A stretch of DNA of 38,957 nt from an uncultured Anaerolineae bacterium (GTDB taxonomy: Bacteria; Chloroflexota; Anaerolineae; VGOG01), in NCBI GenBank assembly GCA_964446635.1, contig CAYUPJ010000011.1:1-38957 (forward strand), written 5' to 3'. The stretch's first letter is position 1. The number at the start of each line of letters is the position of its first letter. The notes beneath the pieces are model-generated. The model had not been told where the DNA came from. It worked only from the letters and a program-made list of their open reading frames with translations, and searched no databases. Positions 3,955 to 34,786 of the stretch are shown one piece after another. Position numbers and translations under genes: made by a program.

Positions 3955-3977
3955 CCAAGTTGGGCGTTAACGGGGAC

Positions 3978-9058: not shown

Positions 9059-9112
9059 GATGTCCTCCTTTCCTAACCTTGATCCGGATACTACCCCAAT
9101 TTTACACCAAAG

Positions 9113-10168: not shown

Positions 10169-10286
10169 CGTCTTTCACCTGCCAACGTATGGATGCAAAT
10201 ACCATACCACATTGTGGCCAAAAGTCAAATTCTGGCTTTTTGCACTGAACCCGACTATAGTGTATAATAAGACCCATGATAGACGC

Positions 10287-10368
10287 CGTGAAACGTGAAA
10301 ACCTGAAACGTGAAACGTGAAAACGTGTTACATGAAAAGCAGTTCGCGTTTCACGCTTCACGTTTGAC
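10287..10368. repeat. Inverted arrays of GTGAAAC / GTTTCAC heptamers forming a long potential hairpin in the rtcA-flp divergent region
   Basis: cgtgaaacgtgaaaacctgaaacgtgaaacgtgaaaacgtg, then after a spacer cgtttcacgcttcacgtttgacg. A TATAAT box at 10263-10268 sits just upstream. Confidence 0.7.
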
Positions 10369-10384
10369 GAGAGGAGGTCAAGAG

Positions 10385-10537
10385 GTGATACCATTTCTAT
10401 CGCGTGAAGAAGGACAGGGGCTGATTGAATATGCCCTGATCATCGTTCTGGTGGCTATCGTCGTCATCGCTATCTTGCTGTTGCTGAGTGATGTGATCCC
10501 AGGATGGCTGGACAAGATCCTCGACTTCATCAGTTAG
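10385..10537 (+). CDS. flp: Flp family type IVb pilin
   Basis: VIPFLSREEGQGLIEYALIIVLVAIVVIAILLLL carries the Flp motif (EGQGLxEYALIL) and a hydrophobic helix. GTG start 7 nt after GGAGG. The track ORF from 10310 is a spurious upstream extension through the repeat array. Confidence 0.8.
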   Translation: MIPFLSREEGQGLIEYALIIVLVAIVVIAILLLLSDVIPGWLDKILDFIS

Positions 10538-20561: not shown

Positions 20562-21242
20562 ATGCCTCTTATAGAGGTAATATTCTCGCATTTTGGCCAG
20601 CGAAGAGGTGAGAGCGTGGTACATTCTGTCGTTTCTACCAGAGCGAGCAATGAGGGTCGCCGTGAGCGGATTCTGCAACTATACTATGACCGCTTGCGTG
20701 ACCTAACGAACTTCTTCTTCGCCGTCAACGCCCTGCTCATCGGGTTGGTAGTGCAATTCGCTCACGATGACCTCCAACAGTTGCTCCTGGCCGTTCTCGG
20801 CTATTCTGGTTCGGTAGCCACACCTTGCATCTATAAGGGTTTTCTCTCGTTGCGCTCGTACCGTGAGGACATGCGCCCGCTGGAGGAATCGCTGGACTAC
20901 GACATTTCTGGGAAGTATGAAAAGCGACTGAAGGGCACGCCGGTGGGGATTGTACGAGTAGCCCTTGTGCGGCTGTGCTTCAGTTTTTTGTTTGCGGGCT
21001 TCTATTTCGCTGCCATTATCTACTTTTTCTACAGGTTATCTGCACTGTATTGCCTCACTCCCCCGTGGTTTAATCTCCTCCTGGGTATTAATCATCTTCA
21101 TGCTAATCTGCTACGTTCCTTGGGTCATTTTTCAACGTCCCGGCAGGCCGGGAGTGATTTGGGCCGTGGTGCGAACGACATAGTGGAGGGAGGTGTAGTT
21201 CATCTTCTGATAAGGAGAAATCAACATGGCTCTATCCCATGA
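20562..21242 (+). CDS. hypothetical membrane protein (start uncertain; in-frame GTG alternative at 20615)
   Basis: Hydrophobic helices FFFAVNALLIGLVVQFA and LCFSFLFAGFYFAAIIYFFY. Overlaps the start of the SIR2 gene by 17 nt. Confidence 0.45.
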   Translation: MPLIEVIFSHFGQRRGESVVHSVVSTRASNEGRRERILQLYYDRLRDLTNFFFAVNALLIGLVVQFAHDDLQQLLLAVLGYSGSVATPCIYKGFLSLRSYREDMRPLEESLDYDISGKYEKRLKGTPVGIVRVALVRLCFSFLFAGFYFAAIIYFFYRLSALYCLTPPWFNLLLGINHLHANLLRSLGHFSTSRQAGSDLGRGANDIVEGGVVHLLIRRNQHGSIP

Positions 21243-23601
21243 AGAAATACGACGCCTCGCTTCCACATTGCGAAAGCAATCACCGGAAGACCGAGAGCTG
21301 TTTGTGAAAATTCTACGGACGGAGGATGTTCTTCCTGGACTCCGAGAGTTACCAGAGGAAGAGCTGAAGGAGTTTCTCGATCTATTGCCTGCCGCTCTAG
21401 CTGAGGAACTACGTAAGGCGCTGGCCGGAGTGGAGATACCGCCGGAACTGATAGACGAGATCCTGCGAGGAAACTGCGTCCTCTTCTTGGGGGCCGGTGT
21501 CTCCTTTGAGGCAGGAATGCCTTCTTCACAACAATTGGTCCGAGCTTTGGGGTACGATCCTAACAATGTGCCCCTAACAATAGCAGCGCAACAATTTGAG
21601 ACTAAACAGGGGCGGACAGAGCTTTGCACCATCATCAAGCGAGAATTCGAGATAGCTGACAAACGTAAGAAATCAGGAAGCTATCAATTCATCGCTAACA
21701 TACCCAAGTTGAACAGCCTAATCATCACTACTAACTACGATAGACTGCTGGAAGAGGCGCTCAAGCGAGAAAAGAAAACACCTTTGACAATCTGTAGGGA
21801 GGCTGAGTTGCCTTCGACGACCGGCCAACCCCATGTGATAGTCAAGCTTCACGGCGACATAGATCAATCCGAGACCGTAGTTATCACCCAAGGAGATTAC
21901 GCACGTTTAGCAGCAAGGCTGCGGGAGCCGGGCGGGTTCGGTGGCTTCCTGGCAACCATTCTTTCCACGCGGATAGTGATCTTCGTCGGGTTCAGCATGG
22001 CCGACGAGGACTTCCGCCTGATCCGCGATTTTATAACTACCCGGATGATTGACTTCGTCGGACGACGCACCCTCAAGCCCCCCTATGCCATCATGCCATG
22101 GGGGGAAGCAGAGGCCAAGGTGCTCGAAAGCCAATTGAACATCAAGGTCATTCGCGGCGAAGCAAAAGACTTCTTCGCCGCCATCTTTCGCCGCACCAGC
22201 GAATTCCTGAATCGGGAGGATGAATTGCGGGAGGTATGCGAGGTCCGAAAGGAACCATTCGTGGAGATTGTGGGTCCTGCTGGCTCCGGCAAGACGATGC
22301 TTTTGAGTGGCATAGAGACCTTCTATCGGATTCAGCGAGGCTTTAACCTGATAGTTTCCATCGCTTTGGAGGAAAAGGAAACCCCTCAAATGCTATCGCG
22401 GCGGCTGGCTGACCAATATAAATTGAGTTTAGATAAATTGGAGGATGACTTAAGAGGGACCTTAGTTCTTTTCACTTTCGACGGAACTGAAAGAGCCCCT
22501 GAGGCTGTACGTTGGCTGGAGCGGGAATTGCTGCCCAGATTAAGAAGAATATGGACCACGGATCTACACACCGACCTGGAGTTGGGCAGTGGGCGGGTGA
22601 TCTTCGCCGGCCGGCAGCATTTCCTTTGGCAATCCGTCACCCGGTTCCACCTCTATTCGCTGATCCTGACTCCTTTCCCGCACGGTGCCGTTGAAGATAT
22701 GGCCGGGAAGTATTACTTCCTCTTCAGGAGAGAAATGCCCTCAGCTCTAGAGAAGAAACGAATCGCCCAGGCTATTCTATCCCTCACCGGCACGGGACAC
22801 GCCGGGTTCATCAAAACCGTTCTGTACAAGATCACTGATGACAAGAAACTGCCAAAGGAGCAATATCCTTCGGCGGCCGATCTGGTCCGCTATATCGAAG
22901 AGCACACCGATGAGTTTCTCGAATGGAAACTGGTGCCTCAACTAAACAATGAGATTTTGAAAGGGGCAGAAGAACCTATCTTGCGGTCATTAGAGGATGT
23001 AATTTGTGTCTTCCGTCGTCTCAACAATTCGATTTTAACGAGTTTGCCCCAAAGAGGACTGGATCAATATGGTGTAGACGAGACCTGGTTCACCAAACCG
23101 GACGCGCTACTGAGAGCACTAGATAGTCTGCATATATTGAGCAAACCGGATGCCCGCAGCCCGATGTATCGGCTGGATCCGGTAGTGGGCTTTCTCCTCT
23201 CCGCGTGGCTCAGAAGAAAGAATTCAGGGGAGCTTTATCGCAAAGACCACGAGGTCGCGCTGGACATCTGCGACGAAGGAGTGCAACGCACTCCTAACCA
23301 TTTCCAGTTGGCCTATGCTCTAGAGGGGCTATATCACTTGCAGTGCCTGCGAGAAATCGGGGCCAGCCAGGTGGAACTGGCCGACAAAGCCAGACAATAC
23401 CTGGGTCAATTACGAGGAGCTGAGAATGGAAAGGCATTGGCCATGCAATGGAAAGATGTGGTCATGGAGGATCCCGATCTGAGGTGGAAAGTAGAAGAAG
23501 AAGCCAGAAGGCTCGACAGAACACCGGAGGAGAGGGAAGAGTGGTTGGCTAAGGTTTATGAAGCGCTAACCGCTGCCTTTGACAAGTATCTAGCCCCATG
23601 A
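21226..23601 (+). CDS. SIR2_2 (DHS-like NAD-binding) domain fused to a P-loop NTPase
   Basis: SIR2_2 motifs CVLFLGAGVS, LIITTNYDRLLEEAL, VKLHGDIDQ, IFVGFSMADEDF. Walker A is EIVGPAGSGKTMLL and the probable Walker B is LVLFTFDGTE. AAGGAG RBS. Confidence 0.75.
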   Translation: MALSHEEIRRLASTLRKQSPEDRELFVKILRTEDVLPGLRELPEEELKEFLDLLPAALAEELRKALAGVEIPPELIDEILRGNCVLFLGAGVSFEAGMPSSQQLVRALGYDPNNVPLTIAAQQFETKQGRTELCTIIKREFEIADKRKKSGSYQFIANIPKLNSLIITTNYDRLLEEALKREKKTPLTICREAELPSTTGQPHVIVKLHGDIDQSETVVITQGDYARLAARLREPGGFGGFLATILSTRIVIFVGFSMADEDFRLIRDFITTRMIDFVGRRTLKPPYAIMPWGEAEAKVLESQLNIKVIRGEAKDFFAAIFRRTSEFLNREDELREVCEVRKEPFVEIVGPAGSGKTMLLSGIETFYRIQRGFNLIVSIALEEKETPQMLSRRLADQYKLSLDKLEDDLRGTLVLFTFDGTERAPEAVRWLERELLPRLRRIWTTDLHTDLELGSGRVIFAGRQHFLWQSVTRFHLYSLILTPFPHGAVEDMAGKYYFLFRREMPSALEKKRIAQAILSLTGTGHAGFIKTVLYKITDDKKLPKEQYPSAADLVRYIEEHTDEFLEWKLVPQLNNEILKGAEEPILRSLEDVICVFRRLNNSILTSLPQRGLDQYGVDETWFTKPDALLRALDSLHILSKPDARSPMYRLDPVVGFLLSAWLRRKNSGELYRKDHEVALDICDEGVQRTPNHFQLAYALEGLYHLQCLREIGASQVELADKARQYLGQLRGAENGKALAMQWKDVVMEDPDLRWKVEEEARRLDRTPEEREEWLAKVYEALTAAFDKYLAP

Positions 23602-23628
23602 GCTGTTTTGCCGTTTTAGGAGGATAAC

Positions 23629-26600
23629 ATGGCTATAGAGAATCTAGTTACGCGAAGACTTCACTGGCTAATTGGTCGCCAGAAAGAGAAAGAGGGTATT
23701 GCCCGTGCCATTAAGGGCCAAGGGCCACCAATCCTCTTCCTGGAGGGCATCGCCGGCATTGGAAAAACGGTTCTCCTGGAAGAAGCCAGTCGTATAGCCC
23801 AAGAGTATGGAGCCCTCTGCCCGCCCATCATAGACTTCTACGATACCGATATGCACGCCCACCGGTCTCTGGAGGCGGCCATTGCCCTAAGCCTGGATCC
23901 AAAAAAGAAGGCTTTCCAAGACTATTGGACCCGGCGAGAACAGATGGAACGTACTATGCTGCCGGAACGCAAGACCCAGAAGGAGCAGGAGAAGGAACTC
24001 TGGGGGCTCTTCGTGAAGGGATACACCAACGTGGCAGAGAACCAACGGGTGATGCTGCGTTTCGATACGGCCGAGCGCCTGGAGTACGAACGGGATTCCC
24101 AAGAAGTCTTGACGGATTGCGAGGTCTCGCCTCAGGATGCCCCCAGTTGGGAATGGCTCCTAGAGCGCATCGGCGATCTAGAGAACACAACCTCCCTCAT
24201 TGCCAGCCGTCCCACAGATCTCCTGAAGCAGAGACTCCTTATAACACATGAGGGGCGTGTTCTTACCCTTGAGGTGAAAGGGTTCACTATAGAGGAGACG
24301 GAGGCCTATTTCCGGGCTACCGATTTCGGCAAACAAGTAGCCGATGAGTCCCCAGAGATGGTGAGCAAGGTCCACCTGCTCACCGATGGACGGCCTATCC
24401 TGATCGCCCTGGCCCTGGACTGGCTGCAACGGGGGATGTGGGAACGGCACATCTACCCGGTCAGCCTGGAAGAATTGAGAACTTTGAAGGAGCAGGCTCA
24501 GGAAGAGGAAAAATCCAACCGAAGAGGTGAGGCCTGGTGGAGATGGGACGAGATCAAGCATAGTTTTGAAATCGCTCTGGTGCAGCAGATCCGCAACCTG
24601 AACCACACAGGTCTGGATGTGGCGGTGAAATATACTGCTCTAGCCCGCAGGGGATGCAATGCCGAGCTTCTCTCTCGCCTAATATGGATTTCTCTGGAAG
24701 AGGTAAAGGGATTGGTAAAGCAGCTCCTGACCCTTTCCTTCGTCAGACCGTCACGTGGTCCCCGTAATCTTTTCTTTTTACACGATGAAATGTATGATCT
24801 GGTGGAAAAATATATCTGGCTGGTGGACTGGCCCGATTGCAGTGAGCAGGCCCGGTTAGACAGAGTCATCATAGAGTGGTATACAGAACAAATAGAGGAA
24901 CTCAAGAAGCGTATCAAAACCTCTCGGGACTGGCGGGAACGGGCCGCCTTACGTAGTCAGCAACAACTTCTGACGGCCGAGCGTTTGTACTACCAGCATG
25001 ATGAGGACCCACGGCTCGGCTATCGTGAATACAGCCACTTAGACGAGGAGGCCGTTGGCTCCCGTGAAAACGAATGGGACGTTATGTTGCGAAACGAGGC
25101 TCTGTGGTTCACATCTCACCGGGCTTGGCGGCAGGGGAAATCGATAAGCGTAGTTGGGGGAGAATATCCCCTTCGTGATCCTGCGTGGGTGAGAAATGGT
25201 AAAGTAGAGCGCAGCCCTGCAGTGGATCACGATTGTCGGCGTCGCTGGGTTAACCGCTACATCGCTCGAAATGAGATGGAGAAAGCAGCCCGTGTTGCTG
25301 AGAATCTTCTCAAGAAGGAACCTCGTGAGGGGGAACCCGAATTATACCGAGGTGGTGTACTAATCGCCCTGGCTACGGCCCAGGCGTACATGGGCGGCGA
25401 ATTCTTGGAGCCAGCTCTTCGGAACTTCCAAGAGGGCATTCAACGCTTGGAGAGCGCTCCAGAGGAACACAAGGAACCATGGCTGTATCCCTACCTCTTG
25501 GCCACAGCATACCTCTATCAAGGCTTGGCCCTGCGTAACTCCCTTCGCCTCGGTGAAGCAGTCCGGTCTTATAGTCAGGCCATGCTCCATTATCGGAGCA
25601 TCGGCTACCAAGCCGGCTTGGCTGAGGCGATGAACAACCTGGCCTACATCTACGCCCGCCAGGGACGGCTGGATCAGGCCCTAGCTTCTTGTGAAGAGGC
25701 CCTGCGCATTCGGCAGGAATTGGGTGACGAATATAATGTTGCCCTTAGTCTCAACACCAAAGGGATCGTCTACGAACGGATGGACCGGCCCCTCACGGCT
25801 ATCCACAATAGCGAGCAGGCCTTGGCCCTTTTCAAGGAGATCAACAACGAACGGGGCATCATCCTGGCCGAGATCAACCTGGGACGCTCCTATCGCCGTA
25901 AAGCTCGTAGTCCTGAATGGGGTCAGAAAAACGAAGACTTTGAGGTAGGAAGAGGACACCTGGAAGACGCCATCTACCGGCAGGAGCAAATGGGGGCCAG
26001 CGCCGAGATGTTCTATCGGATCGAGGCCCACAATGAGCTGGGCTGCCTCTATCGGGATTGGGCGGCGACGTTGGTTGACAAGGGTATCAGAGACAGCAGC
26101 AAATTGCTAGAACACCTGGGAGAAGCCGAAAGCCATCTGAATAGAGCCATCGGTCTGGCCACCCAAGAGGGGCAGATACTAACGCGCCATGCAGTGCAAT
26201 ATGCCGACTCTCTGGAGGACTTGGCCCGCGTATACTACTGGCGTGGGAAGTTGGGATTCTCTGTAGGTTCCTGGGCTAAGCAACGTGGCTTTGACAGGCC
26301 TCTGCAGGCGATGAAGAGCCTTCTCGATGAGGCAAAGAGATTGATAGAGGAACGCCTGAAAGAGTGGGAAGAGCTGCGTCTCATCGTGGGCAAAACCCAT
26401 CACCAGTATGCCCGGCTGGCAAGAGAGGAAGCAGAGGAGGAGTCAAAGAGAGACAAACTCGATTACGTTGCTAAGCACTACGCTTGGGCAGCGGCTCTCT
26501 TGGAGAGTTATTCTTTCGATGCGCCTGAATTGCGCAAGACAGTGGCCGATGCCTGTGAGTGGCTGTGTACGCTTCAGCCTCAGGAAGCGAAAGAGCGGGT

Positions 26601-26733
26601 TGAGCAAATGCATTCTACCCTGAAGGCCGACGGGCAAAAGAGCGAGAGATTGAAGGACTGGGTCAACAGTGTTGTTTATCCTCGCCTCGGTGTAGGCTGG
26701 CCTGAGGAAGGGCCGGAGGTGGCCCATGGGTGA
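23629..26733 (+). CDS. STAND-type P-loop NTPase with C-terminal TPR repeat array
   Basis: Walker A is FLEGIAGIGKTVLLEEA and Walker B is VMLRFDTAERL. The C-terminal half has about 8 TPR-like repeats (AYLYQGLALRN..., AEAMNNLAYIYARQGRLDQALASCEEAL, ALSLNTKGIVYER...). GGAGG RBS. Confidence 0.75.
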   Translation: MAIENLVTRRLHWLIGRQKEKEGIARAIKGQGPPILFLEGIAGIGKTVLLEEASRIAQEYGALCPPIIDFYDTDMHAHRSLEAAIALSLDPKKKAFQDYWTRREQMERTMLPERKTQKEQEKELWGLFVKGYTNVAENQRVMLRFDTAERLEYERDSQEVLTDCEVSPQDAPSWEWLLERIGDLENTTSLIASRPTDLLKQRLLITHEGRVLTLEVKGFTIEETEAYFRATDFGKQVADESPEMVSKVHLLTDGRPILIALALDWLQRGMWERHIYPVSLEELRTLKEQAQEEEKSNRRGEAWWRWDEIKHSFEIALVQQIRNLNHTGLDVAVKYTALARRGCNAELLSRLIWISLEEVKGLVKQLLTLSFVRPSRGPRNLFFLHDEMYDLVEKYIWLVDWPDCSEQARLDRVIIEWYTEQIEELKKRIKTSRDWRERAALRSQQQLLTAERLYYQHDEDPRLGYREYSHLDEEAVGSRENEWDVMLRNEALWFTSHRAWRQGKSISVVGGEYPLRDPAWVRNGKVERSPAVDHDCRRRWVNRYIARNEMEKAARVAENLLKKEPREGEPELYRGGVLIALATAQAYMGGEFLEPALRNFQEGIQRLESAPEEHKEPWLYPYLLATAYLYQGLALRNSLRLGEAVRSYSQAMLHYRSIGYQAGLAEAMNNLAYIYARQGRLDQALASCEEALRIRQELGDEYNVALSLNTKGIVYERMDRPLTAIHNSEQALALFKEINNERGIILAEINLGRSYRRKARSPEWGQKNEDFEVGRGHLEDAIYRQEQMGASAEMFYRIEAHNELGCLYRDWAATLVDKGIRDSSKLLEHLGEAESHLNRAIGLATQEGQILTRHAVQYADSLEDLARVYYWRGKLGFSVGSWAKQRGFDRPLQAMKSLLDEAKRLIEERLKEWEELRLIVGKTHHQYARLAREEAEEESKRDKLDYVAKHYAWAAALLESYSFDAPELRKTVADACEWLCTLQPQEAKERVEQMHSTLKADGQKSERLKDWVNSVVYPRLGVGWPEEGPEVAHG

Positions 26734-27733
26734 TTGCGCCTGCGATGTAAGAGCAGACCAGCTCGATCCTTATGCGCCGCTGTCCCATTTCTTTCTGGAA
26801 CTTACCACCGAGTGTAACAACGCCTGTCCCGGTTGTGGCAGCATCTATGCCCATCAGAAGAACGCGCATCCACTGCCCGCAGCCGATTGGCGCACTGTGA
26901 TCGACCGGCTACTGCCCATGACCCCTTGCCTGCGGCTCACGGGTGGGGAGCCTACGCTACACCCTGAGTTTGAGGAGATTGTCGCATACGTCAATGCCCA
27001 AGGCATTCCATTTACCGTCTTTACCAATGCCCGGTGGGAGGACCCGGATGCCGTGATCCGCATTATGGCGGATAAACAACATCTAGAGGGTATCTTGGTG
27101 TCCATTCACGGGGCACGGGCTTCCTCTCACGAAGCATTCACTGCGGCTCCTGATTCTTTTGACGAAGCGGTGGATAATACTCGCCGAGCGTCCGAGGCAG
27201 GGGTACGGGTTGTGACCAGCACTGTCATCACCCACCAGAACTATCACGAAATAGAAGAGATTGTGGCACTAACCCAAGCCATTGGGGTGGATCGAGCGAC
27301 GTTTAGCCGTTTCATTGGACCGCCTTTGCCCGAGATCGAGACAAGCGAAGGTGAGCTCGAAGTGGCTGTGCAGGCTATCGAGCTATTAATAGATAATGGA
27401 CACTATCCCGAAGGTGGCGGAGAGGCGATTCGCTACGGGGCGCCCATTCCCCGTTGTTTTACTGACAATCGTTCCAACGGGTGTATGGCGGGGTTCGTCC
27501 ATGCAACCATTGATCCGTGGGGGAACTTGCGACCATGCCCTCACGTGCCAATAATCGCGGGTAACGTGTTGGAACAAGACTTTGATACAATCTGGTATTC
27601 TCTGACTATGGAAACTTGGCGGAAGGGACTGCTGGCTCAGTGTGATGGTTGCCCCATCGCGGGTGAATGTCGCAGCGGATGTCAGGCACAGGCCATGTGG
27701 AGAAAGACATTGCGGGATCCACTTATTCAGTGA
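26726..27733 (+). CDS. radical SAM enzyme with C-terminal SPASM/twitch Cys-rich domain
   Basis: CNNACPGC is the CxxxCxxC radical-SAM cluster motif and GGEP is the SAM-binding motif. The C-terminal cysteines CFTD...CMAG...CPH...CDGCPIAGECRSGC fit a SPASM-like auxiliary-cluster domain. The start overlaps the upstream stop (ATGGGTGA). Confidence 0.85.
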   Translation: MGDCACDVRADQLDPYAPLSHFFLELTTECNNACPGCGSIYAHQKNAHPLPAADWRTVIDRLLPMTPCLRLTGGEPTLHPEFEEIVAYVNAQGIPFTVFTNARWEDPDAVIRIMADKQHLEGILVSIHGARASSHEAFTAAPDSFDEAVDNTRRASEAGVRVVTSTVITHQNYHEIEEIVALTQAIGVDRATFSRFIGPPLPEIETSEGELEVAVQAIELLIDNGHYPEGGGEAIRYGAPIPRCFTDNRSNGCMAGFVHATIDPWGNLRPCPHVPIIAGNVLEQDFDTIWYSLTMETWRKGLLAQCDGCPIAGECRSGCQAQAMWRKTLRDPLIQ

Positions 27734-27973: not shown

Positions 27974-29190
27974 CTACCACGATGGCCCACGTTTGTTTTC
28001 ACCATCCTCCTCGGCTACAGCCGACTGGGCTGCGGCGTACACTTCGGCCAGAGGCACGCCGTGTTCCCGCGCGATCCGCGCGCAATCTTCGTATTCTGGG
28101 GCGGAGGCGAGGGTTTCATCGCCAAGCAACTTCTCTTTGACCCGGACTGCGCCCCACGCAGTCTGGACCTCTCGCACCCTTCGCCCGGCCTTCCAGCGGT
28201 GCAGGGGTGGGGTGATGCGCAGGCCCAGGGTCGGGGTTTCGCGCAGGACAATAAGTCCCAGGGTCTCGGCCTGGCCTGCTGGAGCCAATACGGAGAGCAT
28301 GGTCGCCGGGCGGTTCTTCTTCATGAAGATGGGGGTGAACCATACGTCCAGGGCGCCGGCGGCGAACAAACGCTCCATCGCGTAGCCCAGGGCCTCGCCG
28401 GTGACGTCGTCCAGGTTGCATTCCAGGAGCACGACCTGGTCTGCCTCGGTCGGCGCGGGATGGAACGGCTCGCCCAGCCAGACGCGCAGGCTGTTGGGCC
28501 AGGGAAACTCCTTGTCACCGAAGCCGATCCCCACAGCCTGGACTTTCATCGGGGGGCGTTGGAAACGGGCCAGCTCGGCCAGGAGGGCGGCCGCAGTGGG
28601 GGTGACCAGCTCGGTTTGGGCGGGATGGGGCACGGTCGGCGCTCCCACTTCGGACAGGAGGGCCAGGGTGGCCGGTGCAGGCACTGGCAGGAGGCCGTGC
28701 TCGGTTTCGATAAACCCGCTGCCCAATGGCAGGGGCGAGGCGTAGACCGCTGTCACGTCCAGGACGTGCAGCCCGGCCACTACCCCCACGATGTCCACGA
28801 TGCTGTCCACCGCACCGATCTCGTGGAAATGGATTTCGTCTTCAGGGATGCCGTGCACGCGAGCCTCGGCGCGGGCCAGCCGTGCGAATACGGCCCGGCT
28901 GCGGGCTTTCACTTCGGGGGGAAGGGCGCTGACCTCGATGATGGCGTACACGTCCCGTGGATGGCGAGCGGGGCGTGCGCCCAATGTATCGCGCACGTGG
29001 AGCTTGCTACCAGCCATTCCGTGGCGCACCTGGCGTTCCAGCTCCAGCTCGTAGCCCTCCAGATGGAGCTTGTTCAACTCAGCTTGCAGGCGTTCCAGCG
29101 GTAGTCCCGCATCGAGTAGCGCGCCGAGCAGCATGTCGCCGCTGGCCCCACTGAAACAGTCAAAGTAAACGATTCGTGACGCTATGGTAC
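27974..29190 (-). CDS. larC: nickel-pincer cofactor biosynthesis protein LarC (nickel insertase)
   Basis: IVYFDCFSGASGDMLLGALLDAGL, HFHEIGAVDSIVDIVG, PLGSGFIETEHGLLPVPAPA, NLDDVTGE and MKKNRPATML are collinear with L. plantarum LarC. The true start is unclear (no ATG near SRIVYFDC); the track start runs through the TGCGTGT repeat. Confidence 0.85.
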
Positions 29191-29213
29191 CTCCCTGGTA
29201 TTGGGATTGAACT

Positions 29214-29243
29214 GTTGCGTGTTGCGTGTTGCGTGTTGCGTGT
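29214..29243. repeat. TGCGTGT heptamer x4
   Basis: ttgcgtgttgcgtgttgcgtgttgcgtg. It is the inverted partner of the 29728-29783 array. Confidence 0.8.
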
Positions 29244-29711
29244 CTACGGCATAGGCGGGTTGTCAAGCAGGTCTGTTAGATCCACATCGTAGGATGCCCG
29301 TTCTTCTTTCAGCTTATAGCCGCGCTCGGCGGGGATAATGGTGAGTAACAGGCGGATGATGTTGGTCAAAAGCTTAATGCGATGCGTGGCAACGGTCTCT
29401 GAGAGGACGTGTCGCCCTTGACGATACCAGCCGCGAGACTCGCGGGCCGAGCCCAGGGCATACTCGTAGAAGCGGGCTTGATCTCTACCAGACCGGCGGC
29501 TATAACCCTCGGCAACGTTGGCGCTGATGGAGCCGACGGCCCGATACAACTGATCGGCCAGACTGACAGTACGCTTGTCCTGGATCAGCCTGGACACATC
29601 TAGCCACACCAGGTCACCGACGAAGACAGCGAGCCGATAAACCTCCATCCGCCAAAGAGGGTCACCGGTGAATTCTGGAGGGACAGAAGCCAGCCAATCG
29701 TTGTAATCCAT
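29244..29711 (-). CDS. four-helix-bundle protein (23S rRNA intervening-sequence protein family, TIGR02436-like)
   Basis: YRLAVFVGDLVWLDV...LYRAVGSISANVAEGYSRRSGRDQARFYEYALGSARESRGWY is the characteristic motif set of this family. Confidence 0.7.
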   Translation of the reverse strand: MDYNDWLASVPPEFTGDPLWRMEVYRLAVFVGDLVWLDVSRLIQDKRTVSLADQLYRAVGSISANVAEGYSRRSGRDQARFYEYALGSARESRGWYRQGRHVLSETVATHRIKLLTNIIRLLLTIIPAERGYKLKEERASYDVDLTDLLDNPPMP

Positions 29712-29727
29712 TGAGAGCTCCTTCTAA

Positions 29728-29783
29728 CCACGCAACACGCAATACGCACCACGCAATACGCACCACGCAATACGCACCACGCC
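29728..29783. repeat. ACGCAAY/ACGCACC heptamer x8
   Basis: accacgcaacacgcaatacgcaccacgcaatacgcaccacgcaatacgcaccacgcc. Reverse-complement family of the 29214-29243 array; together they flank the four-helix-bundle gene. Confidence 0.8.
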
Positions 29784-29834
29784 ATCACCCTTTTGGGTAA
29801 AACCGAACTGTTCTCAAGTATTCATCGGATTTGA

Positions 29835-30536
29835 TTACTGGGCTCTTCGTCTGGCAGCGGCGGCGCGATTGGCGATGAGGCCGGCCATGGCCGCCGCGCC
29901 GATGCCGTTGTCAATGTTGACTACGGCCATGCCAGGTGAACAGGTCTGAAGCATGGTCAACAGTGCTGCCACCCCCTGACCGCCCAACCCATAGCCGATT
30001 GAGGTGGGCAGGCCGATGACCGGCACGTCCACCAGGCCGCTGACCACCGACGGCAACGCGCCGTCCATTCCCGCGGCAACGATGATCACGTCCACCTGCG
30101 CCTGATTCAACAAACGCTCCAACGGCTCGAACAGGCGGTGCAGGCCGGCCACCCCCACGTCGTAGGCGGTGTGTACCTGGCAGCCCATCTCTCGACAGAG
30201 CACTGCTGCTTCCTCGGCGATGGGCACGTCTGAGGTGCCCGCCGTGAGGATGCCGACCCGTCCCCCCGAATCCGGAGGGGCGGTGCCGGGGCGGCGCAGA
30301 ACCATTGCCCGTGGGACAGGATGCCACTCGATGTCGAAGGAGGCGAATTCAGCCCGCAGGCACGCTTCCATCTCCGGCGGGACGCGGCTGAGGATCGCCC
30401 GCCCCTCGATCTCCAGGAAGCGGCGAGTGATCTCCAGTATCTGGCTGGCATCCTTGCGCTCGGCCAGGATGACCTCAGGCACACCCTTGCGCGCCTGGCG
30501 GTGGAAATCTGGGCAGGCGAATTGGGGCTCAGTCAT
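29835..30536 (-). CDS. larB: nickel-pincer cofactor biosynthesis protein LarB (PurE-like carboxylase/hydrolase)
   Basis: C-terminal PurE-like core VDVIIVAAGMDGALPSVVSGLVDVPVIGLPTSIGYGLGGQGVAALL. Position between larC and larE. Confidence 0.7.
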   Translation of the reverse strand: MTEPQFACPDFHRQARKGVPEVILAERKDASQILEITRRFLEIEGRAILSRVPPEMEACLRAEFASFDIEWHPVPRAMVLRRPGTAPPDSGGRVGILTAGTSDVPIAEEAAVLCREMGCQVHTAYDVGVAGLHRLFEPLERLLNQAQVDVIIVAAGMDGALPSVVSGLVDVPVIGLPTSIGYGLGGQGVAALLTMLQTCSPGMAVVNIDNGIGAAAMAGLIANRAAAARRRAQ

Positions 30537-31380
30537 GCTTCAGAACCTCGTTCATGCTGCCGGAACGGAAGCCAGCCAGGTCGAGGGCCACGTAGACGTA
30601 GCCCAGCTCCCGCAGGCGAGCCACGATGCGGGCCCGCGCATCTTCGGCCAGCAGACGCGACCAGTCGGCGGTTTCGATCTCCAGGCGGGCGACAGGATGG
30701 TGGTCACGCACGCGGAGACTCTCCAGCCCGAACTCGGCGCGCAGGAAGGCCTCCGCTGCCTCCACGCGGTGCAGCCCTTCCCCGGTGAGCTGTGTGCCAT
30801 AGGGAAAGCGGGTGGCCAGGCAAGCCTGGGCAGGCCGGTTCCACACGGCTAGCCCTTTCTCGCGGGCCAGTCGGCGTATCTCCGCCTTGGTCAGCCCGGC
30901 CTCCAGCAGCGGGGCGCGCACGCCCAACTCCTGGGCAGCGCGGTTGCCCGGCCGATAGTCGCCCGCGTCGTCGGCGTTGGCGCCGTGGACCACGTGGGCC
31001 TGCCCTGAGCCCCGTCGAAGGGCCAGCCCTTCTTCCTGGGCGCTGGCGATGATGGCGGCCAACACCTCGCGCTTGCACCAATAGCAGCGGTCCGGAGGGT
31101 TAGCGGAGAAACGAGGGTTGTCCAGCGGGTGGAGGCGGATGGTGCGATGGCGCACGCCCAGGTGGTGGGCAAGCTCACGCGCGGCGGCGATTTCCTCGCG
31201 GGGATGAATCTCGGCGTCGGCAGTGACGGCCAGCACGTTTTCCGAGCCGAGCACGTCCAGGCACTCTGCCAGCAGATAAGTGCTGTCCACCCCGCCGGAG
31301 AAGGCTACTACGGCGCTGCCGATCTCAGCGATAATCTGCCTCAGGCGCGCCGTCTTTCGCCCATTCGCCCATTCGCCCAT
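30529..31380 (-). CDS. larE: ATP-dependent sacrificial sulfur transferase LarE (PP-loop ATPase)
   Basis: PP-loop VAFSGGVDSTYLL. CYWCKRE. ACLATRFPYGTQLT corresponds to the LarE sacrificial Cys loop (SCSVSSRFPYGT). C-terminal YVALDLAGFRSGSMN. The N-terminus is ambiguous: three in-frame ATGs lie inside the CATTCGCCC nonamer repeat. Confidence 0.8.
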   Translation of the reverse strand: MGEWANGRKTARLRQIIAEIGSAVVAFSGGVDSTYLLAECLDVLGSENVLAVTADAEIHPREEIAAARELAHHLGVRHRTIRLHPLDNPRFSANPPDRCYWCKREVLAAIIASAQEEGLALRRGSGQAHVVHGANADDAGDYRPGNRAAQELGVRAPLLEAGLTKAEIRRLAREKGLAVWNRPAQACLATRFPYGTQLTGEGLHRVEAAEAFLRAEFGLESLRVRDHHPVARLEIETADWSRLLAEDARARIVARLRELGYVYVALDLAGFRSGSMNEVLKHD

Positions 31381-31429
31381 TCGCTCATTCGCCCATTCGC
31401 TCATTCGCCCATTCGCCCATTCGCCCATT
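31356..31429. repeat. CATTCGCYC nonamer x8 at the 5' end of larE (in-frame, period 9)
   Basis: cattcgcccattcgcccattcgctcattcgcccattcgctcattcgcccattcgcccattcgcccatt. On the minus strand it encodes MGEWANGRMSEWANERMGEWANGR. Confidence 0.85.
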
Positions 31430-31458
31430 TTGTTGTCGGAACATCTGCCTCCTACCAG

Positions 31459-32745
31459 CTACTGGTTCCAGGCCCCTCGGCTGGGAACGTCAACGGTGAT
31501 GAGGATGGGGTCAACGCGGTTCTGGACGATCTCGACCCCCTCGTGGATCAGCCCCGCCCATAGATAAAAAGGGTTGCGCGGTGGCTTGTCCAGAATCTGG
31601 ATGGCCCCGCTGATGGTCACCCTTTGGCCCGGCTGGAGGTAGTAGAATACATCATCCCCTTTGACCACCGCCTCCAGCTCATCGTGCCGGCCCAGGGACC
31701 AGCGGAAGGGGTAGGAATACCCGGGATTCTCCTCGAAATCTATTCCCAAGCGCCACGCTCCGTCCGATTGATACCACTCCAGGGTGCTGAAGTTCTGGCG
31801 GCTGGTGTAGGTGATCCCCGGCTGCGGGCCGGTGGTGCGAACGGGGGTATCGCCGTAGTTCTCCACGGTGGCCGTGAAATACAGCGTCGCTCCCAGGGGG
31901 ATGGTGAGGGAGGTAAAGTCCCCCCGTAGCCCCTCGTTCGAGGAATACTCCACCACGGCGTTGATGATGTCGGCGCGGGGCACGCCGCCGTGCTGGATGG
32001 TCAGGATGCTCTGCTCCTCTACGCGCTGGCCCACCAGGTCCTCGGCGATGGCCACCACGGTGTAGGTCCCATCGGGCGGCGGGACAGCTCCCAGATCAAC
32101 GCCTCCCTCGTAGTCGTACTGATGCAGGCCCACCTCTCCTGGTTTGATTCTCTGCGACACCGTCTCAGGGAGGAAAACCTTCTCACCCACCTCACTGAGG
32201 AGATAGACCCGCACGGTGGCCGGTTTGGGGAGGAAGTAGTTGATGGTCACGTGGTCGTCCACGCCGTCGCGGTTGGGGGTGAAAACTGGGGGGGAGACGG
32301 AGAAGCCCCGCAGCTCAGGAAGGGTGGTGTCGGCGTCAACGATGGTCAGGCTGCCCTCTGCCCTCTCGGTGTGGCCACTGTCGTCGGTGGCCTCGACCAC
32401 CCAGGTGTACTGCCCATCGGGCAACAGGCGCCTCTTGACCGGCCCCCCTTGAGGCACATCCACCACCCCGCTGAACAGGGTCCAGTAAGACTCTGGTTGG
32501 GCGGAACGGCGCTCTCCATTTCGATGGTAGTGTCGCTCTCCGGCTTGGTCAACGAAGTAGACAGACACACTGGCGTTGCGGGAAAGCTTGTAGAGGACAT
32601 TGGCGGCATCGTCGTGCCCGTCGGCGTTGGGTGAGATCACAGTGGGGTAGAACTCCACGTCGTAGAGCACAGGGCGGGCTGAGCATCCCGCCACGTTTAG
32701 TCCTACCAGGGTCAAGCCGATGACTAACGCTAGGGAGAAGTATTT
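31459..32745 (-). CDS. secreted lipoprotein with FlgD-Ig-like repeats
   Basis: Probable TTG start gives MKYFSLALVIGLTLVGLNVAGCS (lipobox LNVAGC). Repeated ISPNADGHDD and FTPNRDGVDD motifs are typical of FlgD Ig-like / T9SS-type beta-sandwich domains. Confidence 0.55.
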   Translation of the reverse strand, partial: KYFSLALVIGLTLVGLNVAGCSARPVLYDVEFYPTVISPNADGHDDAANVLYKLSRNASVSVYFVDQAGERHYHRNGERRSAQPESYWTLFSGVVDVPQGGPVKRRLLPDGQYTWVVEATDDSGHTERAEGSLTIVDADTTLPELRGFSVSPPVFTPNRDGVDDHVTINYFLPKPATVRVYLLSEVGEKVFLPETVSQRIKPGEVGLHQYDYEGGVDLGAVPPPDGTYTVVAIAEDLVGQRVEEQSILTIQHGGVPRADIINAVVEYSSNEGLRGDFTSLTIPLGATLYFTATVENYGDTPVRTTGPQPGITYTSRQNFSTLEWYQSDGAWRLGIDFEENPGYSYPFRWSLGRHDELEAVVKGDDVFYYLQPGQRVTISGAIQILDKPPRNPFYLWAGLIHEGVEIVQNRVDPILITVDVPSRGAWNQ

Positions 32746-32997
32746 CAAATTAGCAGTACCTCCTACCCCCTCCCTCACCCTCCCCCGTCAAGACGGGGGA
32801 GGGCAGGGGTGGGGGATTGCAGCTTTGTCAGCTTGAAGTTTACCAGATTGTGGCCGAATAGTCAAGGCCGTTTTCCCGATTTTACTTTTTGCCTCAATTG
32901 GTATAGAATAAGCACCGAACTGGTGAGGGGGGATGTTAACCTAGCCATTTTGGATCCACTGATGCTGAGTAGAAAACGAAATCGGGAGGGTTAGCTG

Positions 32998-34560
32998 ATG
33001 AAAGCCATACTTCCAGTAAAACGTCAAACGTCAAACGTCAAGCGTCCAACTTCCAACTTCCAGCTTCCAACTTCCAACTTCAAAGTTGTCCTGGCGAGCT
33101 TGCTGATCAGCTTGTTGGTGCTGGTCTTCCCTCAAATGCTGAGGGTGGAGGGGGCGACGGTTCCCCCAGTGGAGGCCAGCGACAATGGGCTGCTATATAG
33201 AGCCAGGATCGTGCTCAGCACGTCCTCCGATTGGACACGGCTCTACGTTCGCAGCGGGGAGCGAATTCTCAACGTCCAAACCACGATCCTGCAGGGCAAC
33301 GCCGCCACAACGCGAGTTGGGTGGAACAAGGACGAGCTCTACCTGGAGCAACCTCTGACCGACGCTCTGACCAATCTGGTCAAGGTGCAGTACGATTTGG
33401 TGATGACAGGCCTCGAGAAGGACACCCATCTCTTCTTTGAGAATCAGAAAGGCGATTTGGGCGTTGCCACGGCGGAGCTCTATAACTACAACTCGCAGAT
33501 AGCCACCCCTATCGCCTCTTGGTCCAATTTGCTTGATGTTTCGGGTGATCCTGCCAACCCCTTCTCCTTCTCTATAGCTGATTCCCACTTCACCACGGGT
33601 GGCCCTCTGCCCCAGTCCCCTGTGTTTCCCAAATTGGTCTTGGCTTTCTACTATCCTTGGTATGATGCTGATTCCTGGTCGAGTCCCGTTCTCGAGGATC
33701 ATCCTCTTCTTCCCTATAGCTCTGACGACCTGGAGGCCATCACCCGGCACGTCACCTGGGCGCGGCAGTACGGCATTAACGGCTTCATCTCCTCTTGGTG
33801 GGGTTCGGGTAACTATCGGGACATGAACTTCGCCAAACTCCTCACCGCAATAGAAGGCACCGATTTCAGGGCCACCATCTACTTTGAGACCCTCAGCGAA
33901 CGTTTTCGGACAACTCAAGATGTGATCAATCAGTTGGAGTACGTCTTGGCTTCCTACAGCCATCACCCCAACTTCTTGCGCCATCGCGGTAAGCCAGTGG
34001 TTTTCCTCTACGCGGTTGAAAGCGTGGTCAGAAACCCGGGCCAAAGCCCTCTCCAGGCCTGGCAGGCCATCCTCGGTCAAATCCGAGCCGATGGCTACGA
34101 TGCGGTGTGGATCGGCCAGACCTTTGATCCGAGCTATCTGGAGGTGTTCGATGGCCTGCATGCCTATGGCTTCTATGCCCCAGATCTACCCGAAATATAT
34201 TCCTTGGTTTCAGGACAGGTGAGGGCCTATCCGTTCCTGCAGGACCCAAACGCTGGGAGGAAAATCTGGGCGCCGGCGGTGATGCCTGGCTATGATGATG
34301 ACCTCTTGCGTCGGCCTAACTCCTGGTATCTCGATCGAGCTGGTGGCGATACCTATGGCTTCACTTTCCAGGCGGCCATCCAGTCCCAGGCCGATTGGAT
34401 TGTCATCACCAGCTTCAACGAGTGGTGGGAGCATACCCACATTGAGCCCAGCGAACGCCACGGTTTTACTTACCTTGAGCTGACCAAGCAATGGTCAGAC
34501 ACCTTTCTAGCAGGAGCTCTTCACCCCGTTCTCCTGCCCATACTCACCAAGAACTGGTAA
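32998..34560 (+). CDS. secreted TIM-barrel glycoside hydrolase-like protein (GH99-like YYPWY motif)
   Basis: GGGAGGG RBS 7 nt before ATG 32998. A long basic n-region is encoded by heptamer repeats, followed by the hydrophobic stretch VVLASLLISLLVLVFP. Core has AFYYPWYDADSW...GINGFISSWWGSG. Confidence 0.45.
   Translation: MKAILPVKRQTSNVKRPTSNFQLPTSNFKVVLASLLISLLVLVFPQMLRVEGATVPPVEASDNGLLYRARIVLSTSSDWTRLYVRSGERILNVQTTILQGNAATTRVGWNKDELYLEQPLTDALTNLVKVQYDLVMTGLEKDTHLFFENQKGDLGVATAELYNYNSQIATPIASWSNLLDVSGDPANPFSFSIADSHFTTGGPLPQSPVFPKLVLAFYYPWYDADSWSSPVLEDHPLLPYSSDDLEAITRHVTWARQYGINGFISSWWGSGNYRDMNFAKLLTAIEGTDFRATIYFETLSERFRTTQDVINQLEYVLASYSHHPNFLRHRGKPVVFLYAVESVVRNPGQSPLQAWQAILGQIRADGYDAVWIGQTFDPSYLEVFDGLHAYGFYAPDLPEIYSLVSGQVRAYPFLQDPNAGRKIWAPAVMPGYDDDLLRRPNSWYLDRAGGDTYGFTFQAAIQSQADWIVITSFNEWWEHTHIEPSERHGFTYLELTKQWSDTFLAGALHPVLLPILTKNW
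33019..33085. repeat. CGTCAAA x3 followed by CAACTTC/CAGCTTC x5 heptamers inside the 5' end of the GH99-like gene
   Basis: aacgtcaaacgtcaaacgtcaagcgtc caacttccaacttccagcttccaacttccaacttcaaag. Confidence 0.8.
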
Positions 34561-34675
34561 ATCGGGAAACTGGGAAACTGGTAAATTGGGACACGATTCA
34601 CCAACCTACCAATTTACCAATCTGCCAATCTACCAACCTACCAATTTACCAATCTACCAATTTACCAATCTACCG
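34553..34675. repeat. GGAAACT/GGTAAAT heptamers then ACCAAYYT octamer x9, an inverted pair
   Basis: actggtaaatcgggaaactgggaaactggtaaattggg ... accaacctaccaatttaccaatctgccaatctaccaacctaccaatttaccaatctaccaatttaccaatctacc. ggtaaattgg is the reverse complement of ccaatttacc. Confidence 0.8.
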
Positions 34676-34786
34676 TAACTACTCAGGCTGTCATTGCGAG
34701 CGAAGCGAAGCAATCCCCAAGCCGCAAGGAGGAGATTGCTTCGTCGCAAGAAACGCTCCTCGCAATGACACGGGCTGAGCAGTTAC
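34676..34786. repeat. About 100-bp nested palindromic dispersed element (copy 2)
   Basis: taactactcaggctgtcattgcgagcgaagcgaagcaatccccaagccgcaaggaggagattgcttcgtcgcaagaaacgctcctcgcaatgacacgggctgagcagtta has the same outer and inner stems and the same flanking ctcagc/gctgag as copy 1. Confidence 0.8.

Follow-up and report, generated by a model that had tools for sequence, protein, structure and literature searches.

To our knowledge, neither the intervening sequences (IVSs) of rRNA genes nor the S23p/four-helix-bundle proteins have found an explanation since 1993. S23p-type proteins are among the commonest uncharacterised small proteins in Bacteroidota, cyanobacteria, Chloroflexota and other groups, and their genes have been remarked on as out-of-place insertions into cas operons and others. 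Here we describe a gene of this kind (Pfam family PF05635) that lies between larB and larC in a 38,957-nt stretch of DNA from an uncultured Anaerolineae bacterium (Chloroflexota; contig CAYUPJ010000011.1 of assembly GCA_964446635.1), and that is bounded by inverted arrays of tandem heptamers. The whole stretch is called the window below. On balance we consider it probable that the gene and its arrays form an IVS-type element whose host is an mRNA operon rather than an rRNA gene.

Several described systems resemble this arrangement in part. In systems of repetitive extragenic palindromic (REP) sequences, their hairpin-forming doublets (REPINs) and REP-associated tyrosine transposases (RAYTs), one protein gene stands between inverted copies of a hairpin-forming repeat that is also dispersed between genes without the gene; the systems pass vertically for the most part and are duplicated now and then. 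The RAYT proteins belong to the Y1 transposases, and the REP sequences of any one genome are conserved. Avd, the accessory protein of diversity-generating retroelements (DGRs), works on structured RNA.

The IVS of Coxiella burnetii has a 28-bp terminal stem that is cleaved by ribonuclease III (RNase III) in vitro; GACAGAT heptamers, variable in number, immediately precede the S23p ATG, and the first of them is where the 5' cut falls (PMC4990558). PF05635 open reading frames (ORFs) have also been found in rRNA insertions of bacteria of the Candidate Phyla Radiation (bioRxiv 10.1101/2024.02.27.582315). Genes of the family, whose motif is GxxRxxxSxxxNxxE, have been recorded inside cas operons (PMC3936711), and PF05635 resembles Avd (PMC10053308). 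Geobacter metallireducens contains paired sites of classes 1-3, made of 3-5 tandem 7-9-mers on opposite strands in spacers inside operons, such as nifD-nifK, pdhA-pdhB, proB-proA and moaA-mosC. These pairs were read as binding sites of a global regulator (IHF/HU) and no enclosed gene was described; elements of the IS110 and IS481 types use the class 1 sites as targets (PMC2700814). The intergenic TAACTGA heptamers of Beggiatoaceae are direct repeats with a possible translational role (PMC4679880). Full-text literature searches returned no paper tying PF05635 genes in general to flanking inverted repeat arrays.

The four-helix-bundle gene is an insertion between larB and larC

On the minus strand the order was larE (identified by TIGR00268), larB, a heptamer array, a leader, an ORF of 155 aa, the reverse-complement array and larC; the unit from array to array measured 573 bp (29213-29785). 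The initial annotation had described a four-helix gene between larC and larB within inverted heptamer arrays, as a unit of roughly 570 bp. Tandem Repeats Finder, an inverted-repeat search, shuffles and hidden Markov models all bore out this description. Tandem Repeats Finder returned (TGTTGCG)x4.4 with 100% matches at 29213-29243. At 29729-29782 it found a period of 7 with 7.7 copies, described better as the 14-mer ACGCACCACGCAAT x3.8 with 97% matches. By direct reading the units were TGCGTGT x4 at 29216-29243 and eight units ACGCAAY/ACGCACC/ACGCCAT at 29730-29785. The two arrays were inverted to each other, with 28 nt at 93% complementarity and a separation of 486 nt. Read on the minus strand, the 5' arm is (GGTGCGT ATTGCGT)n ... 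GTTGCGTG and is G/T-rich; it alternates two heptamers, so that only every second unit matches the 3' array perfectly. Complementarity of the flanks gave a local-alignment score of 46, compared with 14.8 +/- 2.9 in shuffles. The heptamer TTGCGTG was present in 10 copies in the 39-kb window, where 4.65 were expected, and eight of the 10 lay inside the two arrays. Both the minimum-free-energy and the centroid RNA fold of 29195-29800 (minus strand) paired the 5' arm with the 3' arm.

The ORF starts with ATG and ends with TAG, and the 3' arm begins right behind this stop codon. In the sense of the gene 49 nt separate the larB stop from the 5' arm, and 27 nt, containing the larC Shine-Dalgarno sequence GGGAGG (29192-29197) just outside the 3' arm, separate the 3' arm from larC. 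Consensus scans of 28900-31700 detected no sigma-70 promoter and no intrinsic terminator, and the insert is therefore probably transcribed by read-through; readings as an intrinsic terminator or as an own promoter were dropped on the same scans. The Rfam scan of the element region at E <= 1 gave nothing but a chance pRNA match, and that of the whole window at the gathering threshold gave no match, rRNA included. Location in an rRNA gene, by which IVSs are defined, was not found here, as the element sits between larB and larC.

The initial annotation had called for a comparison with the lar clusters of relatives. In the 80 metagenomic loci that encode the closest LarB relatives (58-78% identity) the four-helix gene was found in none, and where larC followed larB the gap was usually 15-60 nt. 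The gene together with its arrays is an insertion relative to these lar clusters.

At the position where LarC homologues begin, the codon here is ATA, 4 nt past the strong Shine-Dalgarno GGGAGG (29183-29266, minus strand). The sole canonical in-frame start is a TTG at 29266, within the 3' end of the four-helix gene, and a start there would translate the array as an N-terminal extension of LarC. The ATA could be a sequencing error, a non-canonical start or a sign of impaired larC expression.

The encoded protein is under purifying selection

The window protein matched PF05635 (2.6e-15, 57 bits, cut-off 33.8) and TIGR02436 (4.5e-17, 62.2 bits, cut-off 24). Its AlphaFold2 model (predicted local distance difference test 83.7) showed a bundle of four helices, together with short helices at the N terminus and an acidic tail at the C terminus that is disordered. 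Foldseek aligned the model to 2gsc_E (Xcc0516; probability 1.00, template modelling (TM) score by target 0.85) and to 2rld (BT_0352; TM 0.90), and more weakly to the Avd structures 4dwl and 8ube. The family motif was present as R57-x3-S61-x3-N65-x2-E68 within YRAVGSISANVAEGY, the leading G being replaced by Q54, and its R, S, N and E positions were invariant or nearly so across the family alignment. The ratio dN/dS against relatives ranged from 0.05 to 0.2 (median 0.12); this purifying selection implies that the protein is functional. No relative of the protein was found in IMG/VR viral contigs, PADLOC and PHROGs gave no match, and a look-up of the exact protein sequence returned no record.

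Most homologous loci share the architecture

A protein search gave 4620 relatives, more than 100 of them at 73-86% identity and nearly all of these 154-156 aa long. A scan of one genome per species gave 80 homologous loci, spanning Chloroflexota (Anaerolineae, Thermoflexales, Caldilineaceae, Ardenticatenaceae), Verrucomicrobiota, Marinimicrobia, Rhodothermales and Balneolales. The usual flanks were tandem NNNCGTR heptamers upstream (TTGCGTG, GTGCGTG, ATTGCGT, GATGCGT, GAAACGT) and their reverse complements downstream. At least three in-phase CGT units lay within 130 nt upstream in 66 of 79 loci, an ACG array lay downstream in 55 of 79, and both were present in 48; the background array rate in the remainder of those loci was 0.0115 per 130 nt. 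Complementarity of the 90-nt flanks, measured by local alignment, exceeded all 60 shuffles in 71 of the 80 loci, compared with none of 72 larB genes used as controls. In support of the suggestion of the initial annotation that other family members in this genome may carry the same flanks, flanks of this kind were present in these 71 loci, and also in distant plasmid PF05635 genes described below.

The arms kept a steady strand polarity, G-rich on the 5' side in 67/80 loci and C-rich on the 3' side in 71/80. The leader GGTTAGAAGGAGCTCTCA was kept in relatives from other contexts, as seen in the alignment with L001, L007 and L010. The upstream neighbour was co-directional with the gene in 72/79 loci and both neighbours were so in 51/75 (binomial p = 6e-9 against a chance value of 0.35, which is an assumption; the crude ORF calling used for neighbour direction under-counts co-direction).

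Some loci showed further peculiarities. In one Anaerolineales clade (L040, L049, L062 and relatives) the units AACGGAACACGCAACACG and TGTAGCGTGTTGCGTGTTCCGTT were very abundant, stood between many genes and apparently also lay within an ORF of more than 1100 aa. In L004 (4001-5881) the four-helix ORF lacks the C-terminal tail and stop codon and runs through the downstream array into an FAD-linked oxidase, giving a fusion ORF of 626 aa, and several Verrucomicrobia copies also extend into the array (163-175 aa). L067 contains two array-bounded ORF-less elements (2747-2884 and 3841-3978) with a conserved interior of 103 nt. One of them immediately precedes the four-helix gene, and its 3' arm recurs as the downstream arm of that gene; this element is possibly an intermediate form, or one like a miniature inverted-repeat transposable element (MITE).

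The two arms of each copy covary

Duplexes of matched flanks had an energy of -55.6 kcal/mol, compared with -46.0 kcal/mol for flanks taken from different loci (Wilcoxon p = 6e-10), with the limit that duplex folding of 90-100-nt flanks is noisy and runs into unrelated sequence. The analysis in heptamer register was cleaner. At the four variable heptamer positions (majority bases) 188 of 248 arm pairs were Watson-Crick, and when arms were permuted among loci the number fell to 140 +/- 5.5, with a maximum of 157 over 2000 permutations. Single loci illustrate this: the arms of L007 are TTACGTG upstream and CACGTAA downstream, and two copies in L073, 2.5 kb apart, carry ATTCCGT/ACGGAAT in one and GAAACGT/ACGTTTC in the other. 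We concluded that the match between arms is specific to each copy and is not a shared motif.

Contexts vary and inheritance is mostly vertical

About 60 different neighbour pairs occurred among 81 loci, with contexts such as polA, hemC, ABC exporters, a pilus operon, hdrA-mvhD and histidine kinases. L001 and L007, from one metagenome-assembled genome, are mutual closest relatives with 93.1% nucleotide identity and lie in unrelated contexts. In the alignment of L001, L007, L010 and the window, similarity began and stopped at the outer edges of the arrays. The arrays of L001 and L007 differed despite the 93% identity of the ORFs. Contigs with an identical protein in the same context had 3 or about 9 units in the upstream array, so the arrays expand and contract quickly. 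In syntenic groups the values for the protein and for the neighbouring gene were similar (for example 0.88 vs 0.85, 0.94 vs 0.96 and 0.90 vs 0.90). This divergence in step with the neighbours under synteny argues for long vertical residence, with copying being merely occasional.

These observations bear on a mobile cassette at the level of DNA, in which the arrays would be the terminal inverted repeats of a non-autonomous element similar to mobile insertion cassettes (MICs) or MITEs, the transposase would be encoded elsewhere and RNA pairing would be incidental. The number of contexts, the two copies at different sites of one genome, the end of homology at the outer edges of the arrays, the absence of the insert from 80 related lar loci and the lack of an RNA-specific wobble signal (see below) all agree with such a cassette. 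Against it, visual inspection found no target-site duplications outside the window arrays or in the aligned copies, where the variable ends could hide short ones, and the window ORFs that were scanned yielded neither a transposase nor an integrase nor a reverse transcriptase. Furthermore, the ends differ between copies of the same genome (L001/L007 and both copies of L073) while the arms of each copy match, divergence follows the neighbouring genes, and the gene is strongly biased to the direction of host transcription. We regard this explanation as unlikely. The proposal of the initial annotation, that a mobile or excisable cassette may have entered the lar operon, stood in part: the unit is a discrete insert that ends at its arrays and is found in about 60 contexts, but the signs of transposon-type behaviour were missing. 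The element behaves as IVS-like, transcription-coupled and mostly vertically inherited rather than as a transposon.

Four known classes were compared and set aside. The identification as a MIC or MITE failed on the target-site duplications (none seen), on the unlike ends of same-genome copies and on the lack of a transposase in the window. For an integron cassette, the arms pair across the ORF and there is no self-contained attC, GTTGCGT is unlike GTTRRRY, and no integrase was found in the window. For a DGR, no reverse transcriptase domain was present in the ORFs scanned, and the repeat search gave no pair like a template and variable repeat near the gene. In comparison with a CRISPR array, whose repeats of 23-50 nt are separated by unique spacers, the units are 7 nt long, head to tail and spacerless.

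Many distant PF05635 genes and an rRNA IVS have the same build

We further analysed 16 distant PF05635 genes from plasmid records, 28-69% identical to a cyanobacterial query. Flank complementarity was at or beyond 198 of 200 shuffles in 9/16 of these genes and was visible by eye in two or three more. In the complementary cases the arms were always short tandem repeats, but of other units: TCAGGAG/CTCCTGA in Nostocales, AAGGTTC/GAACCTT in Riemerella, GGAGATAA/TATCTCC at the cmr2-cmr3 junction of Picosynechococcus and GGTGACA/TGTCACC at the cas6-cas4 junction of Anabaena sp. 90; further pairs were GGGAAAA/TTTTCCC and GGGTGTA/TACACCC. Organisms in culture that carry genes of the family include Rubrivirga sp. 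IMCC45206 (NZ_CP177357.1, about 2.1855-2.1939 Mb), Litorilinea aerophila, Nostoc punctiforme PCC 73102 (pNPUN01, NPUN_RS33770), Anabaena sp. 90 (pANA02) and Picosynechococcus PCC 7003. Weak bAvd Pfam matches were obtained in the plasmid relatives. One of the 16, on Azospirillum lipoferum AZO_p2, lies inside a 23S rRNA gene (Rfam LSU, 2135 bits) and belongs to a genuine IVS, whose inverted heptamer arrays enclose the ORF in a predicted stem of 25 bp (z = -8.6). The polarity was constant: an arm rich in G or purines preceded the ORF, and one rich in C or pyrimidines followed it.

The diversity of units is relevant to the proposal that the arrays are repeated protein-binding sites, either of the four-helix protein itself, for auto-regulation or packaging, or of IHF/HU, with the inversion reflecting binding geometry. 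Arrays bound by proteins typically consist of short identical units in tandem, the CGT core does not vary within the 155-aa subfamily, and the paired arrays of Geobacter were so interpreted (PMC2700814). The relatives Avd and Xcc0516 form pentameric rings, and Avd binds nucleic acid (PMC10053308). In L168 (Pseudanabaena galeata pPg_01, with the four-helix gene between cas6 and cas4) the arrays are moreover direct on both sides, (AAAGCTA)x15 upstream and (AAAGCCA)x10 downstream. However, the unit differs wholly between branches (TTGCGTG, TCAGGAG, GGGAAAA, GGGTGTA, GGAGATA, GGACAGA) while the fold and R-x3-S-x3-N-x2-E are kept. A shared motif would not require the covariation of arms at each locus, and the Coxiella stem is a demonstrated RNase III substrate (PMC4990558). 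Binding sites are in our view an improbable explanation of the arrays.

ORF-less hairpins occupy the same operon positions

Hairpins of the same arrays without an ORF were found after larB in three relatives of the lar cluster, L087 (22-nt loop), L096 (24-nt loop) and L102 (88-nt spacer). [quoted passage not shown] A further hairpin of L096, made of a different heptamer, lies between larE and larB. The hairpin may hence predate the gene or outlive it. Over all sequences examined, the spacing between a CGT array and the ACG array that follows it was bimodal, with 0-40 nt for hairpins and 450-600 nt for arrays around the gene. Two further ORF-less hairpins are present in the window (Table 1), one between a promoter-like site and a Flp/Fap pilin ORF (10385-10537), the other between a GH99 gene and lon. 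A search for ORF remnants in array pairs with spacers of 45-420 nt gave no more than weak blastx matches, the best with an E of about 0.003, from read-through array peptides. A 9-nt match, CATGAAAAG, was shared by the loop of the window hairpin at 10330 and the leader of L007, with no backing from other hairpins. The occurrence of ORF-less hairpins at the same operon positions suggests recombination into pre-existing hairpins; they could equally be deletion remnants.

It could be argued from these hairpins that the arrays are ordinary intercistronic hairpins of the host, REP-like mRNA stabilisers or processing sites that arose by slippage, and that the four-helix gene is a mere passenger, tolerant of their loops or partial to them, in a unit without function. 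The versions after larB, the two in the window, many more in the flanks of other loci, the bimodal spacers and the dozens of ORF-less pairs inside Geobacter operons are all in line with this. It leaves unexplained why one gene family occupies the loops (71/80 loci vs 0/72 controls), why the same build recurs in rRNA IVSs and across phyla with unrelated units, and why leader, stop-codon junction and arrays are conserved jointly. We give this account little credence.

The closest relatives of the window gene (79-86% amino acid identity; L177-L181, L010, L002, L004) are also found in lar-related neighbourhoods, though not at the same junction. Several have a Lar_N-family (LarA-like) gene on one side and 6-phosphogluconate dehydrogenase on the other, and the copy in L004 is located one gene upstream of LarA. 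Random insertion would not give this so often; a rearranged ancestral neighbourhood, local hopping between hairpins of lar operons and a functional link are candidate reasons.

Features of the window

Table 1. Coordinates of the element, its host genes and the ORF-less hairpins in the window.
Feature	Position	Strand	Description
larB, upstream host gene	29835..30536	-	NF033503 LarB, 2.1e-76; co-directional with the insert
5' arm (sense of the gene)	29729..29785	-	heptamer array; Tandem Repeats Finder period 7/14; inverted partner 29213-29243
Leader	29712..29728	-	GGTTAGAAGGAGCTCTCA; between 5' arm and start codon; Shine-Dalgarno AAGGAG inside
Four-helix-bundle protein gene, 155 aa	29244..29711	-	PF05635 / TIGR02436, Avd-like fold
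3' arm	29213..29243	-	(CACGCAA)x4 on the minus strand, C/A-rich; Tandem Repeats Finder 100% matches
larC, downstream host gene	27974..29185	-	PF01969 5.5e-139, TIGR00299 and LarC2; co-directional with the insert
ORF-less hairpin	10279..10369	+	(GTGAAAC)n, 17-nt loop, (GTTTCAC)n; RNA fold -33.3 kcal/mol, z = -4.2
ORF-less hairpin	34552..34674	+	octamer arrays AACTGGKA / ACCAATYT; RNA fold z = -2.8

Other repeats were observed in the window. Directly upstream of larE, at 31356-31429, lies an octamer array (TTCGCCCA)x9.2, or TGGGCGAA when read along the gene strand. The array and the first ATG of the mechanical ORF overlap, and no complementary partner array was seen nearby. Adjacent arrays (AAACGTC)x4.6 and (TCCAACT)x5.3 at 33019-33081 lie just past the ATG of a 520-aa GH99-like ORF and represent either a repetitive signal-peptide region or a mis-called start. 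An imperfect palindrome at 34687-34770, GTCATTGCGAGCGAAGCGAAGCAATC ... GAGATTGCTTCGTCGCAAG ... CGCAATGAC, between the octamer hairpin and lon, looks like a separate type of dispersed repeat. A G/C-rich palindrome, CCCCCTCCCTCACCCTCCCCCGTC / GACGGGGGAGGGCAGGGGTGGGGG with a 2-nt loop, is present at 32766-32815, at the 5' end of a 439-aa minus-strand ORF in a divergent intergenic region.

Two groups of genes were also recorded. A row of genes at 3978-10168 (minus strand) encodes a Cas6-like protein (337 aa), a 294-aa protein without Pfam match, a 1076-aa protein with a RAMP domain and RtcA, an RNA 3'-phosphate cyclase; it may be an unusual type III-like CRISPR effector locus, and no CRISPR-like array was reported in the window. 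At 21226-27733 (plus strand), adjoining the lar cluster, genes for a SIR2_2-domain protein (791 aa), a 1034-aa TPR protein and a radical SAM/SPASM protein form a defence-like set.

Discussion

Under the interpretation as an IVS-type element in an mRNA operon, a PF05635 gene with its own ribosome-binding site would be carried at the apex of a long stem of complementary heptamer arrays. The G/U-rich 5' array would pair with the C/A-rich 3' array in the transcript, loop out the roughly 500-nt gene and bring the end of larB near the ribosome-binding site of larC; the Shine-Dalgarno sequence of the four-helix gene lies on the loop side of the stem. From the homology with ORF-bearing 23S rRNA IVSs it follows that the stem is probably an RNase III substrate and that the insert could be cut from the polycistronic RNA. 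Excision by RNase III at the RNA level, as in rRNA IVSs (PMC4990558), would be plausible. The arrays would shift fast by slippage, with selection or concerted repair keeping the arms of each copy complementary. The protein may act on repeat hairpins, including the numerous ORF-less ones. Inheritance is mostly vertical, with occasional arrival at new intergenic sites, possibly by recombination into pre-existing array hairpins.

Several observations weigh against this interpretation. Significant complementarity was missing in 9/80 loci, in the Anaerolineales clade mentioned above the gene lies between two complete hairpins and not inside one, and L168 has direct arrays. The arms of some close relatives have just 2-3 units, which is short for an RNase III substrate, and probable cleavage of the window stem by RNase III is argued wholly from the homologous rRNA elements. 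The ORF of the Coxiella IVS, unlike the window gene, appears to be decaying (PMC4990558). We detected no RNA-strand signature, as sense and antisense duplex energies did not differ (p = 0.66) and G:U (6) was not commoner than A:C (16) at the variable positions. Without such an asymmetry, pairing at the RNA level and at the DNA level are not separable, and pairing of single-stranded DNA or a concerted DNA or repair process would fit the covariation equally well.

A wider reading, which we put forward tentatively and hold to be possible without calling it probable, is that PF05635 proteins and tandem-repeat hairpins constitute one unrecognised two-part system across phyla, of which the 23S IVSs are merely the members resident in rRNA. 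The gene would then always lie in the loop of a repeat-built hairpin, and gene-less hairpins would populate operon spacers. A pentameric Avd-like protein would act in trans on the hairpins, by binding them, by guiding or blocking RNase III or by aiding their spread. The relation of protein and hairpin would be like that of RAYTs to REPINs, with array hairpins as landing pads and regulatory targets. If true, this would explain the presence of the gene inside lar, cas, nif-type and other operons.

That the architecture is common to most sampled family members and has gene-less counterparts appears to be a new claim. With complementary repeat arms, their covariation and gene-less versions in equivalent operon positions, what had been isolated anecdotes become a single class of elements, from which it can be predicted that RNase III cuts in the arrays, that the protein binds repeat hairpins and that variation in copy number tunes the length of the stem. 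For annotation it matters that the inserts split operons such as larBCE and cmr2-cmr3, that the arrays may be mistaken for regulatory sites or CRISPR-like repeats, and that read-through into arrays yields false gene fusions. Action of the protein on hairpins, if confirmed, would further inform what Avd-like proteins do outside DGRs.

Comparison with known systems

MICs and MITEs likewise hold a passenger gene between inverted ends and have no transposase of their own; here, in contrast, no target duplications were seen, the ends are variable and orientation follows host transcription. The short tandemly repeated repetitive sequences of cyanobacteria and the heptamers of Beggiatoaceae are also intergenic tandem heptamers, often right before start codons and across phyla, but they were described as direct repeats and not as complementary pairs around a gene. 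The DGR accessory protein Avd shares its fold and superfamily with the window protein, whereas heptamer arrays are no feature of DGRs, and neither a reverse transcriptase nor a template/variable repeat pair was found in the window.

REP/REPIN-RAYT systems agree in the gene flanked by inverted repeats and in the dispersed gene-less copies. They differ in that the protein here is a non-enzymatic-looking four-helix bundle and that each hairpin has its own heptamer variant. The paired sites of Geobacter match the ORF-less hairpins seen here, and the TCAGGAG/TCAGAAT arrays on either side of Nostoc PF05635 genes are complementary to their class 3 unit, MTYCTGA, although no link to PF05635 has been drawn for them.

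The ORF-bearing 23S IVSs of Leptospira, Coxiella burnetii and Azospirillum lipoferum share the PF05635 ORF at the apex of a stem of complementary termini, the variable-number tandem heptamers of these termini beside the ORF, and the purine/G-rich arm on the 5' side. They are co-transcribed with the host gene, and co-transcription with the lar operon is predicted for the window element. The unit is TTGCGTG here and GACAGAT/GGACAGA there, and the window protein, at 155 aa, is the longer one, being extended at both termini. Purifying selection on it is clear, in contrast to the Coxiella ORF that is reported to be decaying. The host is the larB-larC spacer of a protein-coding operon and not an rRNA helix. 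On the interpretation that we favour, the element is a known kind extended, namely an IVS outside rRNA.

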